Shown here piece by piece: positions 9,052-57,721 of a stretch of 64,000 nt of DNA. The position numbers and the translations under genes were made by a program. Below the pieces are notes generated by a model. It ran no database searches and was not told the DNA's origin. It saw nothing but the letters and a program-made list of their open reading frames with translations. The DNA comes from Candidatus Nomurabacteria bacterium (GTDB lineage Bacteria > Patescibacteriota > WWE3 > UBA101185 > UBA10185): positions 39,601 through 103,600 of the forward strand of contig JACKGU010000001.1 in assembly GCA_020631855.1 (NCBI GenBank), written 5' to 3'. Every line of letters begins with the position of its first letter. The first letter of the stretch is position 1.

Positions 9052-9717
9052 GTGAAAGTTGTCAAAGGAAATAAAATAGAAGAATTTACCGTCGAACAAT
9101 CCCTGACTTACATAGAAGGTTTTTCGCGTGTGCATTTGGATATTGGAGCCGGGGATGGAAGGTATGTTTATAAAGAGGCTATGTTATCGGTAGCCGAAGA
9201 AAAAAAGAGCAACACTTTGTTTATTGCTCTTGAGCCTGTTTCAAAACAGCTTGAGGAGTATTCGAAAAAATCCAAAAAAGCCAAGCTAAGCAACTGCCTT
9301 TTTGTTGTAGGTTCTTTAGATAACATTCCGGTAGAACTCGAACACAGGATTAACTCAATATCTATACTATTCCCGTGGGGAAGCCTTCTTCAAAATGTGG
9401 TTTTTCCAGAGGAATTGTTGATTCCTGTTATTTCAAATGTTGCCCGAAATGGTCGATTGTTCCTTACGATTGTTTTTGGGTATGCCCCTGAGGCCGAACC
9501 TTCAGAAATGCGTCGTTTAGGCCTTGAAGATATCAGTTTAAACTCTTTATACGAAAAAATTATTCCGAGATATATTAAAAACGGTTTTAAGGTTGAATGT
9601 GTAAGGCAGAACTCTAGAGAAGATCTAAAGAAATACGAGTCTACATGGAGTAAAAGACTGGCTTTTGGCCAAAGTCGTCCTGTTTTTACACTTGATCTTT
9701 TGTTACAATTACCATAA
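9052..9717 (+). CDS. class I SAM-dependent methyltransferase, possibly a Kam/NpmA-family 16S rRNA (A1408-N1) methyltransferase
   Basis: HLDIGAGDGRY motif I; ISILFPWGSLL and WSKRLAFGQSRPVF resemble what I recall of the Kam/NpmA family (about 220 aa); GTG start; stop overlaps the next gene (ATAATG). Confidence 0.45.
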   Translation: MKVVKGNKIEEFTVEQSLTYIEGFSRVHLDIGAGDGRYVYKEAMLSVAEEKKSNTLFIALEPVSKQLEEYSKKSKKAKLSNCLFVVGSLDNIPVELEHRINSISILFPWGSLLQNVVFPEELLIPVISNVARNGRLFLTIVFGYAPEAEPSEMRRLGLEDISLNSLYEKIIPRYIKNGFKVECVRQNSREDLKKYESTWSKRLAFGQSRPVFTLDLLLQLP

Positions 9718-29003: not shown

Positions 29004-30287
29004 TTAATTCAAGTGTTCGTTGTTATATTTTTTTATAAAATCAAGAACTTCTTCAGGGCTCGTGCAAATTTTCACAAGGTCGGCCTCACCTTCGCGCAAA
29101 AGAAGGTATTTTTCAAGAGCGGCAATTATTTCTTCCCAGAAATTTCCATATAAGATTATTGGTTTATGGTGCCCCTCGTGTATTCGAGAGTTGGCCCAAC
29201 TCATGCCGAGTTCGCTCAGTGTTCCTGTCCCTCCAATGAATACGATGTGCAGGTCTGTGTTTTGCAACATTATTTTTGTACGATCGAAATAATCCTTCGT
29301 TGTAATTTCGAAATCAAAGTCGTTTTCGGGATCGGTGCCTTCATAGTTTTTATGCTTGTAGCTTGGGCTGTAGGTAACCACCAGTACTTCTTTGCCCCCT
29401 GCGTGTGTTCCTTTGGTGGCCGCCTTCATAATACCGGGTCCGCCCCCGTTTATAACCGCAATGCCGTTTTCTGCTAGAAGTTTAGCCACGGCAAAAGCCT
29501 CTTTATAGGCTTGATCTTTCTCAGTTAGTGCTGCTCCGCCAAAGAACCCCGCAGATTTTATTACTCCGGAATATTCTATAGGTACTAGTTTTTCGGAGCT
29601 TTTTTTCTGTTGAACTTTTTTTTCACTCATTATGTTTTTTATAACTTTTTGTAATTCTAAGTATGCCTCATCGGGTCTATTTTTTGCAAATATTGCGGAA
29701 CCGGCAACGACCGAGTTTATCGATCTGATAACAGAGTAACTAAAGTACTCCTTTAAAGTTTTTGTGTTTATACCCCCGTCTAGTTGAAGTAGGTGGTCTG
29801 GGTTTTTTTTAGCAAATTTCAGAGCATTTTTAAAAGCTTCCGGCTCAAATTTTCTGCCTTGTCCTCCCGGCACTACGGTTAAAAACTGTACGTTGTTTGT
29901 ATAGGAAGAAAAGACAGCCATTTCTCTATCTGATGTGTCTAGGGAAAATGAGATTCCGAGATCGATTCTATTTTCTGCACATAGTTGCTCGAGCATTTTG
30001 AAGTGGGCCTTACTTTTTATTGCTTTTGACAAAACGTATATTTTTGAGATGTGGCCGTTCTGAAAAATATATTTTTCAGGAACGGCCACCATTAAATCTA
30101 GTTCTAAAGTTAAGTTTTGTTCAAAATTTAAATCAAAGAGGGGACTCGGGTCTACAAAAGTTTTACCTTCTACTAAAGTCCCGTCGCACATATCGATCTG
30201 AATATGCTTAGCAGTGCCCCCAAGCCCTTCAATGTTATTCAGAACTTTTTCTATCGACTGTTCTAAGATAGTTGGGTAGATTTTCAT
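29004..30287 (-). CDS. fusion of a ribulose-phosphate 3-epimerase-like TIM barrel (N-terminal) with a LOG/TIGR00730-family nucleotide phosphoribohydrolase domain (C-terminal)
   Basis: N-terminal: IYPTIL...HIQIDMCDG, LDLMV, LTVVPGGQGRKF, LDGGIN...VAGSAIF, matching RPE blocks. C-terminal: GGGPGIMKA and IGGTGTLSE, the LOG-family motifs. Confidence 0.55.
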   Translation of the reverse strand: MKIYPTILEQSIEKVLNNIEGLGGTAKHIQIDMCDGTLVEGKTFVDPSPLFDLNFEQNLTLELDLMVAVPEKYIFQNGHISKIYVLSKAIKSKAHFKMLEQLCAENRIDLGISFSLDTSDREMAVFSSYTNNVQFLTVVPGGQGRKFEPEAFKNALKFAKKNPDHLLQLDGGINTKTLKEYFSYSVIRSINSVVAGSAIFAKNRPDEAYLELQKVIKNIMSEKKVQQKKSSEKLVPIEYSGVIKSAGFFGGAALTEKDQAYKEAFAVAKLLAENGIAVINGGGPGIMKAATKGTHAGGKEVLVVTYSPSYKHKNYEGTDPENDFDFEITTKDYFDRTKIMLQNTDLHIVFIGGTGTLSELGMSWANSRIHEGHHKPIILYGNFWEEIIAALEKYLLLREGEADLVKICTSPEEVLDFIKKYNNEHLN

Positions 30288-44174: not shown

Positions 44175-44654
44175 ATGGATCTAGTGAATCGCAAATCTGC
44201 CCTTTGGCAATATCTGCCAAGCGAAATAAAAGGTCTCATTGAAGACGGGGAAAAAATCTTGGCTCATGCTCAAGAGCATCAAGAGAACCTTTCGGACTTT
44301 TCCTACTTAGTGTTTCCGTTCTCAAAAGCATACGAAGGATTTTTAAAGAGGTTATTTCTTGATTTAGATCTAATTCGTGAAGATGAGTATTACGGGGATG
44401 AGATACGAATTGGGCGTATTTTAAACCCCCATTTTATGAAAGAAAAAGGAAATGTTTTTAATAAGCTGTGTTCTAAAACAGGTAATGGAAACGATATAGT
44501 GCAGCAACTTTGGGAAACATGGCGTGAAGGACGTAATGAGGTTTTTCACTATTTTCCCCATAACTTCAGGCGCCTGTCTTACAAAGAAGCGTCTAAAATT
44601 ATTCAAGACATTTTACGTGCCATGGAGTCGGCAGTTGGAAGCTGCTACTTGTAG
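44175..44654 (+). CDS. hypothetical protein with a possible HEPN-type Rx4H motif
   Basis: RNEVFH near the C-terminus is consistent with HEPN Rx4-6H; otherwise unrecognised. Confidence 0.25.
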   Translation: MDLVNRKSALWQYLPSEIKGLIEDGEKILAHAQEHQENLSDFSYLVFPFSKAYEGFLKRLFLDLDLIREDEYYGDEIRIGRILNPHFMKEKGNVFNKLCSKTGNGNDIVQQLWETWREGRNEVFHYFPHNFRRLSYKEASKIIQDILRAMESAVGSCYL

Positions 44655-45959: not shown

Positions 45960-48305
45960 TTAGTAGTTTGCGATGCTAAAACTTGTTCCCAAAGCCTTGT
46001 TTGTGTGTGTGGGTTTTCTATTTGGGTTGTATCTTATATACACTTCTTGTGGCGTTTCGTAATTACCTTCAAAGTCTACGGCCATTGTTTGTATTGCATA
46101 AGAACCGGGTACCTCAAGACTCACAGAAGACCCTGTATACTCTTTCCATTCCACCTCGCCTCCAATTTTATAATATATTTTATCGGCAACTTCATTTGTT
46201 GTGACAGTAAAGTTTGTCGGTCCAACAAACCAGCCATTAAGTGGGTTTGTGCTAAGCATTGCAATCGATCTTGGGGCTTGTATGTCATATTTTTCGGCAA
46301 GAACAGAAAAAGCCGAAAACGAAGAAGTATGTGCTGTGATGATTTTGTTTATAGGATCAAAGACCGAATCTAATATTTCCCATATCTGTTCTTCGGCGTT
46401 GAAGTGGTAGATAGCCATTGTGTCAGCATTATAGTTAGCTAAATCCACACCGTTTAGCTGAATGGTAATGGTTGCGGGCGCAGTAATCTCGTAAATTTTT
46501 TTACCTAAGGTATCAATAATATCAATAACTGTTCCGGTTTTAGGTACGGGATAAAGGTTTTCCGGAGTTCTGCCTACAGGCCCTAGAGGGCTTAGCCGAA
46601 TTGTTACTCCGGACTTTGTAGCGTTTTGGGGCAGTTCTAATGATCGGTTATAGTAGCTTACTTGTACTTCGGCGTTGTTTGTAAATTTTGTGCTGGGAGA
46701 GAAATCTTCCTTCCATAGATACGGACTCACAGTTCCTTTATGTGCTCCCAGTACGTCTTGCCAAGAAAAATTAGGCCACGGATCTTGTATGTAATCCGCC
46801 CACCAAGAAAAAGGATCAATAAAGCCGTCGGGAATATCGTCTGCAAAACTGTTGTTATTATTTTTATCTTTGAGTACGGCTAAATGCAAATGTGGGCCGG
46901 TGGTTTTTCCGCTCAGCCCTACGTAACCAATAACTTCGCCCTCATTTACATGGATAGGGGAGCTGGAACTTGTAAACAGACCCTCGCCTTGTAAGTGCAT
47001 GAAGATCGTTTGATATCCGTTTAAGTGGTCTATTTTTATTGTGTGCCCACAGCTGTTGCAGAAATAGTAGGTCGCATTACCTTCAGCAGGTGCTTTAATC
47101 GGTGTTCCAAAAGCAAGTTTAAAATCAATGCCGTTGTGCCCGGAGTAGTACTCAAAGGGCTGCTTGTCCCTTATACCCATAAAGTTCAGAATCGTATCTT
47201 GTCTGGATAACGGCTCCTCGTAGAAACCATACCCCAGAAAAGGGTATTCATGATCAAAATACGATGTTATAAGATCAAGAGGAATATCTTCGGTATTTTG
47301 TATTTCGAAAGGCAGGGATAGAAATTTACTATTATAGTCGTTCTGCTCTATTTTATATTTTTTTAAGCCCTGTTGGTAGTGTGTCCCTAGCAGGAGCTGT
47401 GGCGCTGAGTACACGTGCGTTAGTTTATCAACCTTTGTTATAGTATTCCCTGAAGTGCTCTCCCAGCCTTCGTCAACACCACTTTTCTTAAAGACAAACG
47501 CGTTTCCGTAGATATCGTTTACAGCAACGTAGAGATTCTCATTTATTACAATCATGTCTTTGACCGCATATCCGTCAAAAAAGCTGTCGTAGCTCCACAC
47601 GTCTGTGCCTGATACTAAGTATCGTAGCCCCAAATAGTCATCACCAGCATAAGTCCTGTTTTCATATTCTGCGAAACTCGATATTCTTCTATTCCTAAGG
47701 CCAATTATCTCTTCCCATGTATGGCCGTTGTCGGCTGAAAAATAATTATTGCTGGCCATAGAAATATAGATTTTTTCTCCTATCATGCTGATGGAGAAAA
47801 TTGTCTTTGTGTTAGTTTCGTCCGGCATTGGTCGTTCCCAGTTTTGCCCTTTATCAAAAGAAAAATATGCCCCGTTGTACCTCTTGCCCACAATAATTAG
47901 ATTTTCTTTTGCCTTTATAATCCCGCCTGAAAAAGGAAAAACGTCTGATAGATGTTGCCACGTGTACCCGCCGTCAGAAGATGCAAAGATCCCGCCGGTT
48001 CCGTCAATTTCGAACGCGGTAGTGGCGTAAATTGTGTTTATTCCATCGAAAGACATTGTGGTAACCCCTCTCCCTTCAAGTCCGTTTGTTTTTATCCATG
48101 TGTTTCCTAGGTCGTGACTTACGTAAATTCCATTATATGGATTAAGCCATATTCTATCGTCGAACTCTCCCGCTATTAATCCGTAGGGGGTGTTGATAAT
48201 GTTTTTGATTTTGGGATCCAGCTGTTCCCAACTTTCAGACGCAAGCAAATTATTATTAAGGCTAAGTAGCATAAAGGCTATAACACAGATTGCTATATTT
48301 TTCAT
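45960..48305 (-). CDS. large secreted protein with BNR/Asp-box repeats and an M23 (LytM-type) metallopeptidase domain
   Basis: Signal peptide; repeated SxDxGxTW (SHDLGNTW, SSDGGYTW, SFDKGQNW, SADNGHTW); M23 motifs HNGIDF...HLHL. Confidence 0.6.
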   Translation of the reverse strand: MKNIAICVIAFMLLSLNNNLLASESWEQLDPKIKNIINTPYGLIAGEFDDRIWLNPYNGIYVSHDLGNTWIKTNGLEGRGVTTMSFDGINTIYATTAFEIDGTGGIFASSDGGYTWQHLSDVFPFSGGIIKAKENLIIVGKRYNGAYFSFDKGQNWERPMPDETNTKTIFSISMIGEKIYISMASNNYFSADNGHTWEEIIGLRNRRISSFAEYENRTYAGDDYLGLRYLVSGTDVWSYDSFFDGYAVKDMIVINENLYVAVNDIYGNAFVFKKSGVDEGWESTSGNTITKVDKLTHVYSAPQLLLGTHYQQGLKKYKIEQNDYNSKFLSLPFEIQNTEDIPLDLITSYFDHEYPFLGYGFYEEPLSRQDTILNFMGIRDKQPFEYYSGHNGIDFKLAFGTPIKAPAEGNATYYFCNSCGHTIKIDHLNGYQTIFMHLQGEGLFTSSSSPIHVNEGEVIGYVGLSGKTTGPHLHLAVLKDKNNNNSFADDIPDGFIDPFSWWADYIQDPWPNFSWQDVLGAHKGTVSPYLWKEDFSPSTKFTNNAEVQVSYYNRSLELPQNATKSGVTIRLSPLGPVGRTPENLYPVPKTGTVIDIIDTLGKKIYEITAPATITIQLNGVDLANYNADTMAIYHFNAEEQIWEILDSVFDPINKIITAHTSSFSAFSVLAEKYDIQAPRSIAMLSTNPLNGWFVGPTNFTVTTNEVADKIYYKIGGEVEWKEYTGSSVSLEVPGSYAIQTMAVDFEGNYETPQEVYIRYNPNRKPTHTNKALGTSFSIANY

Positions 48306-48615
48306 TCTATTATAGTAAGAAAATATTCGGAAATACCAACTTGCATTGTATATTATAAGTAGATTTTATTTTAAAAGTAATTTACCACAATAGTTGCTAA
48401 TATTGATAAAAAGAGGGGCACTATTTGATTTCTATAATAAAAGATTGATGCCGTCTAGGATAGGCCAGTATTACTTGGGAGTAATAAATTTACTCACAAT
48501 GAATAGTTTTAGACATTTGGGCCTATAGATAAGAGGGATATTTAACTTTTTTTCCTCGGTGCCGTTCGTATCATTTTTGCTTTTACTTGTTATAAAGTTT
48601 ATAATTCAAGGCAAC

Positions 48616-49947
48616 ATGTTAAGTCTATCCAAAATTTACTCTAGCAACCCCGATCTAAGAAAAGCTCAAGTCAAAGGACTTCTTTTTTTATTAAACTCCG
48701 AAGACTCTATTTCTAATAATGAGCTGGTTCAACGAACCGGTCTTTCCAAAGAAGTTTTAAAAACATTTAAAGAATCAATTTCTTCAATATTAATAAAAAC
48801 AACTGCTGATGAGCTAGCATTGACGAAAGTCGGCAGGGAGGCTGTTGGGGAGATGAATCCGGAACCCTATTCTTGGACCTACTTAAGCTTTAGCTTTGAT
48901 GCTCTAATGTTGCAGGCGCTTGAAGCTATAAAAGCTATACGGGAAGGGCAGCAGCAATTTGTGGCAAAGAGAGAGTTTGACCAGTTTTTTTGTACTCCTG
49001 AAACTTCGATACTTAAGGCAAAAGCGATTCTAAATAAAGTCGGTGGGTCTGAAGGTGTTAGCATTGCTTTGATGGGGGATGATGATTTGGTTTCAATATC
49101 ATTGGGATTGTTGGACCGGGCTGTAGAAGAAATAATCGTTTTTGATGTAGATAAAGATGTTCTGTCTCTAATAAAGGAAAAGGCTGAGGAATTAAAAATT
49201 ACCTCCATAAAAACCGTTTTATACGACGCAAGAGATGATCTTCCAAAAGACATGGTCGCACGATTTGACGCAGTGCTGACTGATCCGCCGTATACAAGAC
49301 CAGGAGTAGCCGTGTTCCTAGATAAGTGCATTACATTATGCAAAAAAGCTACTACATATGCGGGGCCATATATATTTTTTTGTTATGGTAACGGCCTGCG
49401 CGACCCTTTAAAAGGGCTTAAAGTTCAAGATATTATTCTTAGCAGAAACTTGTTGATAGAGGAAAAAATATCAACATTTAACAGATATGACGGGGCGGAA
49501 ATAATTGGAAGCTCCAGCGATTTGTTTGTATTGAAGGTTTTAGAAACAACGGAAGTTCTGGAGGATTACACCGGTACAGAGATTTACACTTATGAGAATA
49601 CCGAGATAGAGGATTTCCCATACGTAGATCATTATGTTTTTAAGTTATATAAGGTTCCTTCGCACGTTGTTACCTCTAAAAAAACATTGCAGAAGAATAT
49701 AGGCGTTTTTTGTAAATGGCATGGCTTAAACGTTGTTGACACTAAACTAACGAGATTTAAGGGAGGGGGATTCAGCTTCACGTACATACTTTCAACTTCA
49801 AATCTTCTTGTCCATACGTGGCCTGAAAAAAGGGCCCTCCATATAGATCTCATAACCTGCTCTCCCATTAAGAAGAAGCACCTGCTCTTAAAGAATTTAT
49901 CTGATCTGTTTAGTACTATGTCCGTAGAAATCAGAAAAATTGAATAG
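48616..49947 (+). CDS. fusion of a BpsA/DUF43-like aminopropyltransferase-fold domain with an AdoMet decarboxylase (SpeH-like) domain
   Basis: LMGDDDLVSISLG and LTDPPYT (DUF43/BpsA-like); C-terminal FKGGGFSFTYILSTSNLLVHTWPE...IDLITCS matches the pyruvoyl AdoMetDC core; the start is moved to the ATG at 48616 because the upstream 19 codons are hydrophobic and unsupported. Confidence 0.45.
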   Translation: MLSLSKIYSSNPDLRKAQVKGLLFLLNSEDSISNNELVQRTGLSKEVLKTFKESISSILIKTTADELALTKVGREAVGEMNPEPYSWTYLSFSFDALMLQALEAIKAIREGQQQFVAKREFDQFFCTPETSILKAKAILNKVGGSEGVSIALMGDDDLVSISLGLLDRAVEEIIVFDVDKDVLSLIKEKAEELKITSIKTVLYDARDDLPKDMVARFDAVLTDPPYTRPGVAVFLDKCITLCKKATTYAGPYIFFCYGNGLRDPLKGLKVQDIILSRNLLIEEKISTFNRYDGAEIIGSSSDLFVLKVLETTEVLEDYTGTEIYTYENTEIEDFPYVDHYVFKLYKVPSHVVTSKKTLQKNIGVFCKWHGLNVVDTKLTRFKGGGFSFTYILSTSNLLVHTWPEKRALHIDLITCSPIKKKHLLLKNLSDLFSTMSVEIRKIE

Positions 49948-50202
49948 AGGTGTCTCAAGGAGCTCGAAAACAACCAGCATTACTATAGCTTTATTCACAG
50001 TAAAAAATACTCAAAAAAACAGCGCGAACTATTTGACTTTATAATGGTTAGTTGGTATGTTTGGTTCTGCACATATTGCTTTAGGGTAATTATGTGGTGG
50101 TTTAAGTAGACTCATGTTAGCATAAGCCACACAAATCCAACCCGCACTTTAAAAAACAAATAGTTAAAGTTCGATGAATTTAAGGTGAAAAGAATGATTT
50201 CT

Positions 50203-51678
<1,476 letters not shown>

Positions 51679-52814: not shown

Positions 52815-53705
52815 TTAGTTTTTTGTTTTGAAAAAATACTCCCTCATTTTTATTGTTTTTCTAAGACCTTCGTCAAGAGTTGTTAGTGGTGACCATCCTA
52901 GATTTTTTGAAGCTTTTTCATACCTAACGCTCAGAAAGCATTCCTGTTTCGGTCTATCATTTGAAGTTGGCTTTTGCTTTTGAAGCCGCTGTCCGGGTTT
53001 TTTATTGTCGATTTTCATTAGCTTCGATATAGTTTCTTGTAACTGCCCGTTGTTTAATTGCAGGCCTGCCCCGATGTTAAAAATTCCTTCGCAGTCTTTT
53101 TCTATAGCTTTTACGTATGCGTCAATGTGATCATCGATAAAAATAAAATCTCTCACATCTAGAGGCTGTTTAATTTTAGGATCATTTTTATTTAGTAATG
53201 AGTCGATGATGTATTCTATTAGGTAAAATCCGGCCCCTTCTCGTCCATAGGTATTGGCAGTTCTCATTATAACCATTTTGACGTCAGGCATCGCTTGTGC
53301 AAAATATTCAATTACTCTTTCTGCGTTTTGTTTGCTTAGCCCATATGGTGATGATGCTGGTCCTAGCTCTAGTGTTTCTGAAAAAGGTTCATTTGAGTTC
53401 TGATAGCCGTATACCTCCATCGAGCCCGCAAAAACGAGCTTTGCTGTATTTATGTCTTGAGAGCCCTTTAGGTTTTTTATTGCTGATAGGAGTTTGAATG
53501 TTCCTATCTCATTAGTTTGTAAGTATTCCTCAGGAAAATTGAACGAAAGCCCTCCTGACGATAGCGCTGCTAAATGAACTATAACTTCTGGATTCGCTTC
53601 TTTTATGGCGTTTTCCATGGATCTTTGATTATTGAGATCTGCGACAAAAAGCTTTGCCTGGGCCGGGACTTTAAGGAGGTCAATATTGCTATTGATCCTA
53701 TGCAT
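52815..53705 (-). CDS. NAD-dependent epimerase/dehydratase (extended SDR) with an interrupted N-terminus
   Basis: YxxxK-type SDR core. In frame and directly upstream (53706-53798) lies KKIFITGITGFIGKRLAQRLIEQGYEVSG, the Rossmann motif, but with no start codon. An ATG at 53795-53797 is out of frame by one, next to an A7 homopolymer. Confidence 0.65.
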   Translation of the reverse strand: MHRINSNIDLLKVPAQAKLFVADLNNQRSMENAIKEANPEVIVHLAALSSGGLSFNFPEEYLQTNEIGTFKLLSAIKNLKGSQDINTAKLVFAGSMEVYGYQNSNEPFSETLELGPASSPYGLSKQNAERVIEYFAQAMPDVKMVIMRTANTYGREGAGFYLIEYIIDSLLNKNDPKIKQPLDVRDFIFIDDHIDAYVKAIEKDCEGIFNIGAGLQLNNGQLQETISKLMKIDNKKPGQRLQKQKPTSNDRPKQECFLSVRYEKASKNLGWSPLTTLDEGLRKTIKMREYFFKTKN

Positions 53706-53818: not shown

Positions 53819-53895
53819 TGGTGGGTCTGGATGGACTCGAACCATCGACCTTTCCCTTATCAGAGGAACGCTCTAACCGCCTGAGCTACAGACCC
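53819..53895 (-). tRNA. tRNA-Ile (GAT), CCA encoded, on the strand opposite the rRNA genes
   Basis: Reverse complement GGGTCTGTAGCTCAGGCGGTTAGAGCGTTCCTCTGATAAGGGAAAGGTCGATGGTTCGAGTCCATCCAGACCCACCA; anticodon loop CTGATAA. Confidence 0.85.
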
Positions 53896-54241: not shown

Positions 54242-54317
54242 GGGCCTGTAGCTTAGTTGGCAGAGCGCTACATTTGCAATGTAGAGGTCACGGGTTCGAC
54301 TCCCGTCAGGTCCACCA
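54242..54317 (+). tRNA. tRNA-Ala (TGC), CCA encoded
   Basis: GGGCCTGTAGCTTAGTTGGCAGAGCGCTACATTTGCAATGTAGAGGTCACGGGTTCGACTCCCGTCAGGTCCACCA; G3:U70 identity pair present. Confidence 0.9.
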
Positions 54318-54484
54318 AACTATATAGATAATCTTTATCTAGGTACTTTGAAAACTGAACGAAAAACAATGTTAGTTCAACATGAGAATCAAGTACTTTG
54401 TTGTCGCAAGACAGCAGGGTAGTTTAATTCTTGAAGTTCCGTGTTTACACGGAACACAACGTCTTAGTATTAGAAATATAAAAA

Positions 54485-57505
<3,021 letters not shown>

Positions 57506-57605
57506 TATATTTCTTATAAGATGTTGCGTTGTCTACATTTGTTTTTTGTTCAGTTTTTAGAGTACCTACTGTTAGGTAGGTATTCTAAATTTAGTTTGTG
57601 GTCAG

Positions 57606-57721
<116 letters not shown>

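Follow-up and report, generated by a model that had tools for sequence, protein, structure and literature searches.

In this study, we describe a 443-aa open reading frame (ORF) that joins a BpsA-type aminopropyltransferase to a class 1b S-adenosylmethionine decarboxylase (AdoMetDC) in a single polypeptide. The ORF occupies positions 48616..49947 (+), from its ATG through a TAG-type stop, of a 64,000-nucleotide stretch (the window) of contig JACKGU010000001.1 from a Candidatus Nomurabacteria bacterium of the WWE3 lineage. Judging by its sequence, the fusion is probably a producer-consumer aminopropylation module, in which one half makes decarboxylated S-adenosylmethionine (dcSAM) and the other half uses it, and it appears to be a conserved bifunctional enzyme that is as yet uncharacterised. 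The fusion is genuine and does not stem from misassembly; three independent assemblies encode the identical protein, and all 67 long ORFs from species-representative Patescibacteria genomes are fused. A first-pass annotation had proposed both domains from the DNA letters, and Pfam places BpsA_C at aa 117-310 and AdoMet_dc at aa 339-442, each above its curated cut-off. The motifs it had named (LMGDDDLVS, LTDPPYT, GGGFS...LLVHTWPE...IDLITC, and T394-S395) are all found where it placed them. Its central suggestion, that producer and consumer of the aminopropyl donor share one protein, is supported by predicted domain identities, folds, catalytic residues, and genomic associations. An alternative GTG start at 48559, 57 nt upstream, would extend the protein to 462 aa. 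The ATG at 48616, also used in the public annotation, is the predicted true start, because homologues are 431-445 aa long and align from residues 1-10.

The N-terminal half resembles BpsA in both sequence and predicted structure. A helical, winged-helix-like domain of the kind present in BpsA spans approximately aa 1-110 (48616..48945, +; helices H4-H110 of the model) and contains a weak Pfam match to HTH_24 at aa 21-45. It is followed by a Rossmann-fold catalytic domain at aa 117-310 (48964..49545, +), which matches BpsA_C (PF01861) with 110.1 bits against a cut-off of 27 (E 1.3e-31). As a single sequence, the protein matches the structures 2qm3 from P. furiosus (8.5e-20) and 5xnc, the BpsA of T. 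kodakarensis (Tk-BpsA; 1e-17); with a family profile these E values become 2e-36, in an alignment to 2qm3 that starts at residue 27, and 4.9e-35. An AlphaFold2 model of the fusion, built on 50 homologues, has a pLDDT of 90.1 and a pTM of 0.79. When this model was compared with the PDB by Foldseek, BpsA structures ranked on top (E about 2e-20 over about 350 columns). RsmD, HemK, and METTL5 appear as secondary matches that are far weaker than BpsA, METTL5 by ten orders of magnitude in Foldseek; these arise because amino-methyltransferases classically have DPPY, as in this protein, for their motif IV.

Several residues with a role in BpsA catalysis have equivalents in the window protein. In Tk-BpsA, the GDDD motif (G157-D160) positions the aminopropyl group of dcSAM and is indispensable for catalysis, and Asp225, Glu259, Tyr290, and Tyr316 activate the acceptor amine (2026 branched-chain polyamine review). 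We derived residue equivalences from an alignment to chain 5xnc_A, the numbering of which is the native number plus 20. The GDDD motif of the window protein, G154-D157 (49075..49086, +), corresponds to G157-D160 and is kept in 66-67 of 67 fused ORFs; this set, one ORF per species-level genome drawn from the best 80 of 263 genomes, underlies all conservation counts given here. D223, equivalent to Asp225, opens the DPPY motif D223-Y226 (49282..49293, +; 67/67), and Y291, equivalent to Tyr290, is kept in 66-67 of the ORFs. The motif is DPPY throughout the family, whereas it is DPPE in Tk-BpsA and DPVE in the BpsA of Thermus thermophilus (Tth). Glu259 of Tk-BpsA lies within a two-residue insertion and is without a clear partner in the window protein, the nearest conserved acid of the family being E265. 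The position of Tyr316 lies beyond all alignments obtained, with Y304 (64/67; F in the window protein) a candidate. With GDDD, the Asp225 and Tyr290 equivalents, and BpsA as the best match in both sequence and structure, the N-terminal region does not look like a generic class I methyltransferase, and the aminopropyltransferase assignment of the first-pass annotation is upheld.

The two halves are connected by an acidic linker at aa 308-337 (49537..49626, +), which by sequence composition has nine acidic and no basic residues; its pLDDT of 75-79 is below the model average. It carries the motif IYT[YF]E at aa 323-327, which is conserved in the family, and a family EE pair at positions 331-332 that reads I331-E332 in the window protein. 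Glutamate is found at position 327 in 56/67, at 331 in 50/67, and at 332 in 58/67. Tk-BpsA operates by a ping-pong mechanism in which a flexible acidic C-terminal cluster (E339, D342-E345) serves as the aminopropyl carrier (2026 review). The linker may be the counterpart of this carrier tail, a likeness of composition and not of aligned position.

The C-terminal half was identified as a class 1b AdoMetDC (SpeD/SpeH) domain at aa 338-443 (49627..49944, +) by Pfam, profile alignment, and Foldseek. AdoMet_dc (PF02675) matches aa 339-442 with 56.1 bits against a cut-off of 25 (E 5.4e-15). The T. maritima (Tm) AdoMetDC structure 1tlu is matched at 1.9e-5 by the single sequence and at approximately 2e-11 by the family profile, which aligns 102 residues without gaps such that the window residue number is the Tm number plus 332. 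In Foldseek, the domain superimposes on Tm AdoMetDC (1vr7) with a TM-score of 0.79-0.81 and an rmsd of 2.1 Å over 109 columns, in keeping with the AdoMetDC fold that the first-pass annotation had assumed. A PDB search with a family profile of the C-terminal domain retrieved AdoMetDCs and nothing else. TALE-repeat proteins, the top PDB matches of the C-terminal 114 aa (E about 1e-7), were rejected as an artefact of summed sub-threshold repeats with no significant stretch.

In AdoMetDC, S63, H68, and C83 are essential for self-processing and catalysis (Li et al. 2023). By profile alignment, the corresponding residues of the window protein are S395, the precursor of the pyruvoyl group (67/67); H400 (66/67); and C415 (49858..49860, +; 67/67), the catalytic and processing cysteine. 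S395 is part of the predicted self-cleavage site T394/S395 (49795..49800, +), where cleavage would give a beta chain of 44.2 kDa and an alpha chain of 5.7 kDa. The HTWPE motif (49813..49827, +) includes H400, P403 (Tm P71; 63/67), and E404 (Tm E72; 67/67), with T401 and W402 kept in 66-67 of the ORFs. F381 (Tm F49) is likewise invariant (67/67), and S387 (Tm S55) is S or T in all 67. Three family positions depart from the T. maritima enzyme: T394, which precedes the serine (Tm E62), is N in 38 ORFs, T in 13, S in 12, Q in three, and A in one, and never E; K343 (Tm E11) is K in 64/67; and H409 (Tm A77) is H in 67/67. Because catalytic residues are kept in 66-67 of 67 ORFs, both active sites appear to be under purifying selection.

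The cleavage-site context of the window protein is S-T-S-N and not the canonical E-S-H, and for this reason the first-pass annotation had called pyruvoyl formation uncertain. SpeD homologues with an E-T-S site self-process fully, and the substitution S229A abolishes the activity of that domain (Li et al. 2023). Since validated domains of this type process to completion, a T-S junction is, by analogy with SpeD-type ornithine decarboxylase (ODC) homologues, a functional self-cleavage site. The doubt is thus largely answered, with the serine also invariant in the family; cleavage of the window protein itself remains predicted. The likeness to these homologues does not extend far beyond the junction. 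Four residues, Gln, Thr, Phe, and Tyr, mark out SpeD-derived ODCs (Li et al. 2023), and the validated domains read QLIETS-LxSGHFAN...Y (Li et al. 2023, supplementary alignment). The window protein reads YILSTS-NLLVHTWPE...H, and at the four diagnostic positions (Y390, T394, T401, and H409) Thr alone matches. Moreover, most relatives have Asn, not the ODC-type Thr, before the cleavage-site serine. In a search for a validated SpeD-derived arginine decarboxylase for comparison, pelagiphage HTVC201P was not recovered by tblastn of a phage collection with T. maritima SpeD or a SpeDC domain as the query.

We assessed the distribution of the fusion in a scan of one genome per species, in which relatives were found in 263 genomes. 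The best 80 of these are almost all WWE3, "Saccharibacteria," or Patescibacteria metagenome-assembled genomes (MAGs), and two complete WWE3 genomes are included. Both domains are present in all 120 best database homologues, at 38-51% identity. An exhaustive HMMER search covering 1.84 billion representatives yielded 1459 matches, 65 of them at E<=1e-30, and among the weaker matches are collinear BpsA_C + AdoMet_dc fusions from Xenorhabdus species (WP_099140869), Vagococcus fluvialis, Lokiarchaeota (NHJ22539), and Odinarchaeota. These share the domain order, GDDD, DPPY, and an [IL]YTxE junction with the window protein, but are only about 30% identical to it. Their AdoMet_dc half is canonical (Pfam E 1e-28 to 1e-37), with an ES/H site (TS/H in Lokiarchaeota), FxPxG, WPE, and an acidic residue at the position of Tm E11; they also differ in that some contain a zinc-ribbon insert and in having a polyketide synthase (PKS) cluster or a GNAT gene as neighbours. 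Public annotation calls them "adenosylmethionine decarboxylase" only. The four-cysteine zinc-ribbon insert (YxCxxC...CPxC) directly follows [IL]YTxE in several relatives from outside the candidate phyla radiation (CPR) (P0193, P0213, P0198; L083 5623-6783) and is absent from the window protein.

Where the two domains are not fused, their genes can be found together. Nine Shapirobacteria-type loci have a 316-aa bpsA-like gene product ending in IYTND followed by a separate 113-aa speD-like gene (LSQS-HLIIHSWPENNALHIDLMTC), with an 8-nt overlap between the genes in one of them (L078). At Streptosporangiaceae loci, a canonical speD (LAES-HLSIHTWPE) divergently adjoins a DPPY bpsA-like gene. We ran a hidden Markov model (HMM) of the C-terminal domain over every ORF of all fetched loci (about 80) and found no second SpeD homologue near any fusion or elsewhere in the window. 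Repeated fusion, overlap, and adjacency are as expected if SpeD supplies dcSAM to the GDDD-type transferase.

A third partner recurs in these neighbourhoods. GNAT acetyltransferases are fused with some BpsA-like relatives, a GNAT gene lies 24 nt downstream of the Vagococcus fusion, and GNAT genes also adjoin the Shapirobacteria and Streptosporangiaceae bpsA/speD pairs. Overall, GNAT genes stand beside or are fused with DPPY BpsA-like genes in Shapirobacteria, Streptosporangiaceae, Vagococcus, and Streptomyces (examples are L078 7345-7821, -; L083 6660-7295, +; L090 11362-11796, +; P0198; and P0262). Such an association is typical of free-amine (polyamine) metabolism, and its recurrence suggests N-acetylation of the aminopropylated product. 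The Xenorhabdus kozodoii fusion (L089 11750-21235) adjoins genes for a fatty-acid desaturase, a saccharopine-dehydrogenase-like protein, a 1481-aa PKS, and an AMP-binding/carrier protein, a cluster for which biosynthesis of an amine-bearing lipid or polyketide is possible.

Comparison with characterised enzymes delimits what is new in this architecture. With BpsA, the fusion shares PF01861, an arrangement in three parts (a helical N-domain, a Rossmann domain, and an acidic tail), and the GDDD, Asp225, and Tyr290 equivalents. It differs from BpsA in its modest identity (approximately 20-23% in structural alignment), in a tail that runs on into the AdoMetDC domain, and in its host, an uncultured Patescibacteria MAG without indication of thermophily. 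T. maritima AdoMetDC TM0655 (1tlu, 1vr7) has the same fold as the C-terminal domain, in which the equivalents of S63, H68, C83, E72, F49, and S55 are all present. In contrast to TM0655, which cleaves at E-S, the fusion has a T-S site, with N-S prevailing in the family, and its domain is the C-terminal part of a larger protein, so that the beta chain would reach 44 kDa. Bacterial fusions of AdoMetDC with spermidine or spermine synthase, which are ancestral to animal spermine synthase, likewise join a dcSAM producer to a dcSAM consumer, and both halves are experimentally active in delta-proteobacterial and Krumholzibacteria proteins. However, AdoMetDC is N-terminal in those fusions and C-terminal here, and their transferase belongs to the SpeE family and acts by direct SN2 transfer, whereas BpsA is a ping-pong enzyme. 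Because domain order is reversed and the transferase family is different, the BpsA-AdoMetDC fusion is independent of the SpeE-type fusions and convergent with them. SpeD1-SpeDC fusions (Omnitrophota, Desulfotignum) also attach a pyruvoyl SpeD-fold domain to a polyamine enzyme, and their second domain self-cleaves at E-T-S; there, the T-S domain is an ODC partnered with an AdoMetDC, whereas here the partner is a transferase.

These comparisons lead us to propose how the protein could work. The AdoMetDC domain would cleave its own chain between T394 and S395, converting S395 to the pyruvoyl cofactor, and the resulting 44 kDa chain (BpsA domain plus the beta part of AdoMetDC) would stay bound to the 5.7 kDa alpha chain. 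The processed domain would decarboxylate S-adenosylmethionine (SAM) to dcSAM, which the BpsA-type Rossmann domain would bind via GDDD. D223 and Y291 of the DPPY pocket would activate an amine acceptor, to which the aminopropyl group would then pass, possibly with the acidic linker as a transient aminopropyl carrier as in Tk-BpsA, and methylthioadenosine (MTA) would be released. Fusion would set a 1:1 ratio of donor maker to donor user and could prevent build-up of dcSAM. A small di- or polyamine, probably scavenged, is the likeliest acceptor. BpsA uses dcSAM to convert spermidine to N4-branched polyamines. With DPPY in place of DPPE and hosts not known as thermophiles, the product of the fusion may be linear or branched, and that it is N4-bis(aminopropyl)spermidine seems rather doubtful.

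The position of the fusion gene is also conserved. In the window, a co-oriented 16S rRNA gene (50200..51677, +), which is context and not part of the enzyme, begins 252 nt downstream. The fusion gene is directly upstream of a co-oriented 16S in 42 of 66 related loci, with a median gap of 265 nt. Contigs commonly end at rRNA operons, and 21 of the 24 other loci end less than 1.5 kb past the fusion gene; the linkage therefore holds at 42 of 45 informative loci, with three lacking it. The upstream order (GT1, two small ORFs, MnmA, and a divergent M23-BNR peptidase) is conserved as well, despite 16S identities of just 83-88% among loci. No 16S linkage was seen at the Shapirobacteria, Vagococcus, and Xenorhabdus loci examined. 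A scan of positions 48200-50300 for promoters and terminators gave sites no more numerous than in shuffled sequence, with one TTGACT-17-TATGTT site and no terminator between the fusion gene and 16S; this speaks neither for nor against joint transcription of the gene and the rRNA.

Several observations weigh against the reading of the fusion as a dcSAM producer joined to a BpsA-type dcSAM consumer. BpsA products are seen as mainly a thermophile trait (2026 review), and there is no sign of thermophily in these lineages. At residue 265 (nt 49408-49410), the window protein has L where 64/67 relatives have E; the surrounding sequence is GNGLRDPLK as opposed to GNSFKSPEK in the family, and the Asp two residues before this Leu may be a shifted acidic residue of the acceptor pocket. 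The TIGR03330 score of 45.1 bits falls below the 75.65 cut-off, placing the C-terminal domain as divergent and short of equivalog level. Tm E62 is replaced by T or N, E11 by K343, and A77 by H409, and the proline of the FxPxG motif of canonical enzymes occurs in 11/67 ORFs, with G383 in the window protein. SpeD-derived decarboxylases are known in CPR bacteria, and those that became arginine decarboxylases (ADCs) are hard to distinguish from true AdoMetDC by sequence (Li et al. 2023). As for a source of the acceptor, the 64 kb window holds no other polyamine gene or polyamine transporter; a Pfam search of 40 further window ORFs, together with the annotated neighbours, limited to these 64 kb, detected no SpeE, ADC, ODC, agmatinase, Pot transporter, MetK, or MTA nucleosidase.

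Based on these points, we considered whether the C-terminal domain could be a neofunctionalised SpeD with ADC or ODC activity, supplying the acceptor (agmatine or putrescine) while dcSAM comes from elsewhere. SpeD homologues repeatedly became ADC or ODC, CPR included (Li et al. 2023), ADC derivatives diverge little from AdoMetDC, a Thr before the serine is one of the four ODC-diagnostic residues, and the equivalents of E62 and E11 are lost along with conservation of the FxPxG proline. We nevertheless regard this possibility as unlikely. Three of the four ODC diagnostics are absent (Y/F replaces Gln, T replaces Phe, and H replaces Tyr), and HTWPE with an invariant E404 stands in place of the HFAN of ODC domains. 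Li et al. 2023 describe one proline as fully conserved in true AdoMetDC and lost in SpeD-derived ADCs. Two prolines are candidates for it, that of WPE (63/67) and that of FxPxG (11/67). The crenarchaeal ADC, which we take to read HTWNE, would favour the WPE proline as the diagnostic one. Also, the AdoMetDC halves are fully canonical in the collinear fusions of other phyla, and neither the window nor the approximately 80 loci contain a second SpeD homologue that could supply dcSAM. It appears very improbable to us that the domain is catalytically dead and has a structural or dimerising role, comparable to that of the N-terminal domain in animal spermine synthase. The AdoMetDC-derived domain of human spermine synthase is indeed inactive yet required for dimer formation, and the window domain scores below the NCBIfam equivalog cut-off. 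However, S395, H400, C415, and E404 are kept in 66-67 of 67 species, whereas degraded domains lose such residues, as in the Victivallis case (Li et al. 2023).

The DPPY motif IV, the winged-helix-like N-domain, the next-best structural matches (METTL5 and RsmD/GidB-type rRNA methyltransferases), and the location directly upstream of 16S in 42/45 informative loci together raise the question of whether the N-terminal domain instead methylates or aminopropylates a macromolecule, such as rRNA, and not a free polyamine. We judge this to have a low probability, given that BpsA matches stand ten orders of magnitude above METTL5, that the BpsA-specific GDDD stands where a glycine-rich SAM loop is usual, and that the N-domain is shared with true BpsA. 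A fused decarboxylase turning SAM into dcSAM favours aminopropyl transfer, the GNAT and PKS genes beside relatives indicate small-molecule amines, and the Shapirobacteria, Vagococcus, and Xenorhabdus loci lack 16S linkage. A fusion would fit any two consecutive steps, and K343, H409, and the loss of E62 could mean a different substrate. The order of reactions could in principle then be reversed, with the intact 3-amino-3-carboxypropyl group of SAM moved to an amine and the carboxyspermidine-like product decarboxylated by the pyruvoyl domain. [quoted passage not shown]

Within the preferred reading, in which the fusion both makes and uses dcSAM, the identity of the acceptor allows a further, tentative proposal. 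The DPPY clade, always paired or fused with AdoMetDC and often accompanied by GNAT, could be a distinct, widespread aminopropyltransferase family outside thermophiles with a new acceptor, and maybe not a branched-chain synthase at all; we consider this possible but not the likelier case. Its hosts comprise CPR bacteria, Asgard archaea, Firmicutes, Xenorhabdus, and actinomycetes. If the proposal is true, acceptors could include scavenged diamines, which would be converted to polyamines of an unusual kind, either linear or branched; an amine on a polyketide and even a macromolecule are further options.

The surroundings of the fusion gene contain other features of note. The rRNA operon downstream is interrupted: 16S (50200-51677) and 23S (54478-57510) are separated by 2.8 kb that holds an NAD-dependent epimerase/dehydratase gene on the opposite strand (52815-53705) and tRNAs at 53822-53895 (-) and 54242-54314 (+), and 5S follows at 57609-57717. 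At nine related loci (L006, L023, L033, L035, L042, L052, L060, L068, and L071) the 16S match stretches over 2.3-3.6 kb, which implies that large insertions are present, and 23S has a group I intron in L006 and a 4.7 kb span with LAGLIDADG ORFs in L004. Large insertions are typical of CPR rRNA genes. Upstream, a conserved hypothetical protein of 159 aa (44175-44654, +) is a constant neighbour, and its homologue in L008 has weak HEPN_RnaseLS/RnlA matches. Another constant neighbour is a secreted-looking 781-aa M23 peptidase with BNR/sortilin repeats (45960-48305, -), transcribed divergently from the fusion side across an AT-rich spacer of 310 nt. Farther away, a 221-aa ORF (9052-9717, +) gives a full-length match to the NpmA-type 16S rRNA (adenine1408-N1) methyltransferases (E 3.7e-41; 141 bits versus 60), a family known for aminoglycoside resistance. 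In a single 427-aa ORF (29004-30287, -), ribulose-phosphate 3-epimerase (aa 2-199) is joined to an SLOG domain of the LOG/"possible lysine decarboxylase" type (aa 247-415); the ORF lies within a run of pentose-phosphate genes (transketolase halves, RpiB, transaldolase, and 6-phosphogluconate dehydrogenase). We rejected its "Lysine_decarbox" match as evidence of a lysine decarboxylase, the domain being of the LOG family.

Both domains of the fusion are annotated automatically in databases. We found no published description or test of a BpsA-AdoMetDC fusion in the literature on BpsA and AdoMetDC fusions, CPR/WWE3 polyamines, or Xenorhabdus aminopropylation; the words "fusion" and "fused" are absent from the 2026 BpsA review, and the paper on a complete WWE3 genome is silent on polyamine synthesis by that organism. 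Branched-chain polyamine synthases have counted as a hallmark of (hyper)thermophiles; the BpsA-type enzyme described in this study appears tied to its own dcSAM supply in minimal-genome bacteria that are not known as thermophiles. The finding raises the questions of which polyamines CPR bacteria make themselves, what role BpsA homologues have outside hot environments, and whether dcSAM is channelled by a second, convergent producer-consumer fusion. The same architecture in cultivable Xenorhabdus and Vagococcus offers an experimental entry point, and an enzyme needing just SAM and an amine could serve as a one-gene aminopropylation module. Under the tentative proposal of a separate DPPY family, the fusion may be the sole polyamine-biosynthetic enzyme in WWE3-type bacteria, and its near-universal place at the head of the rRNA operon would couple polycation supply to ribosome production.

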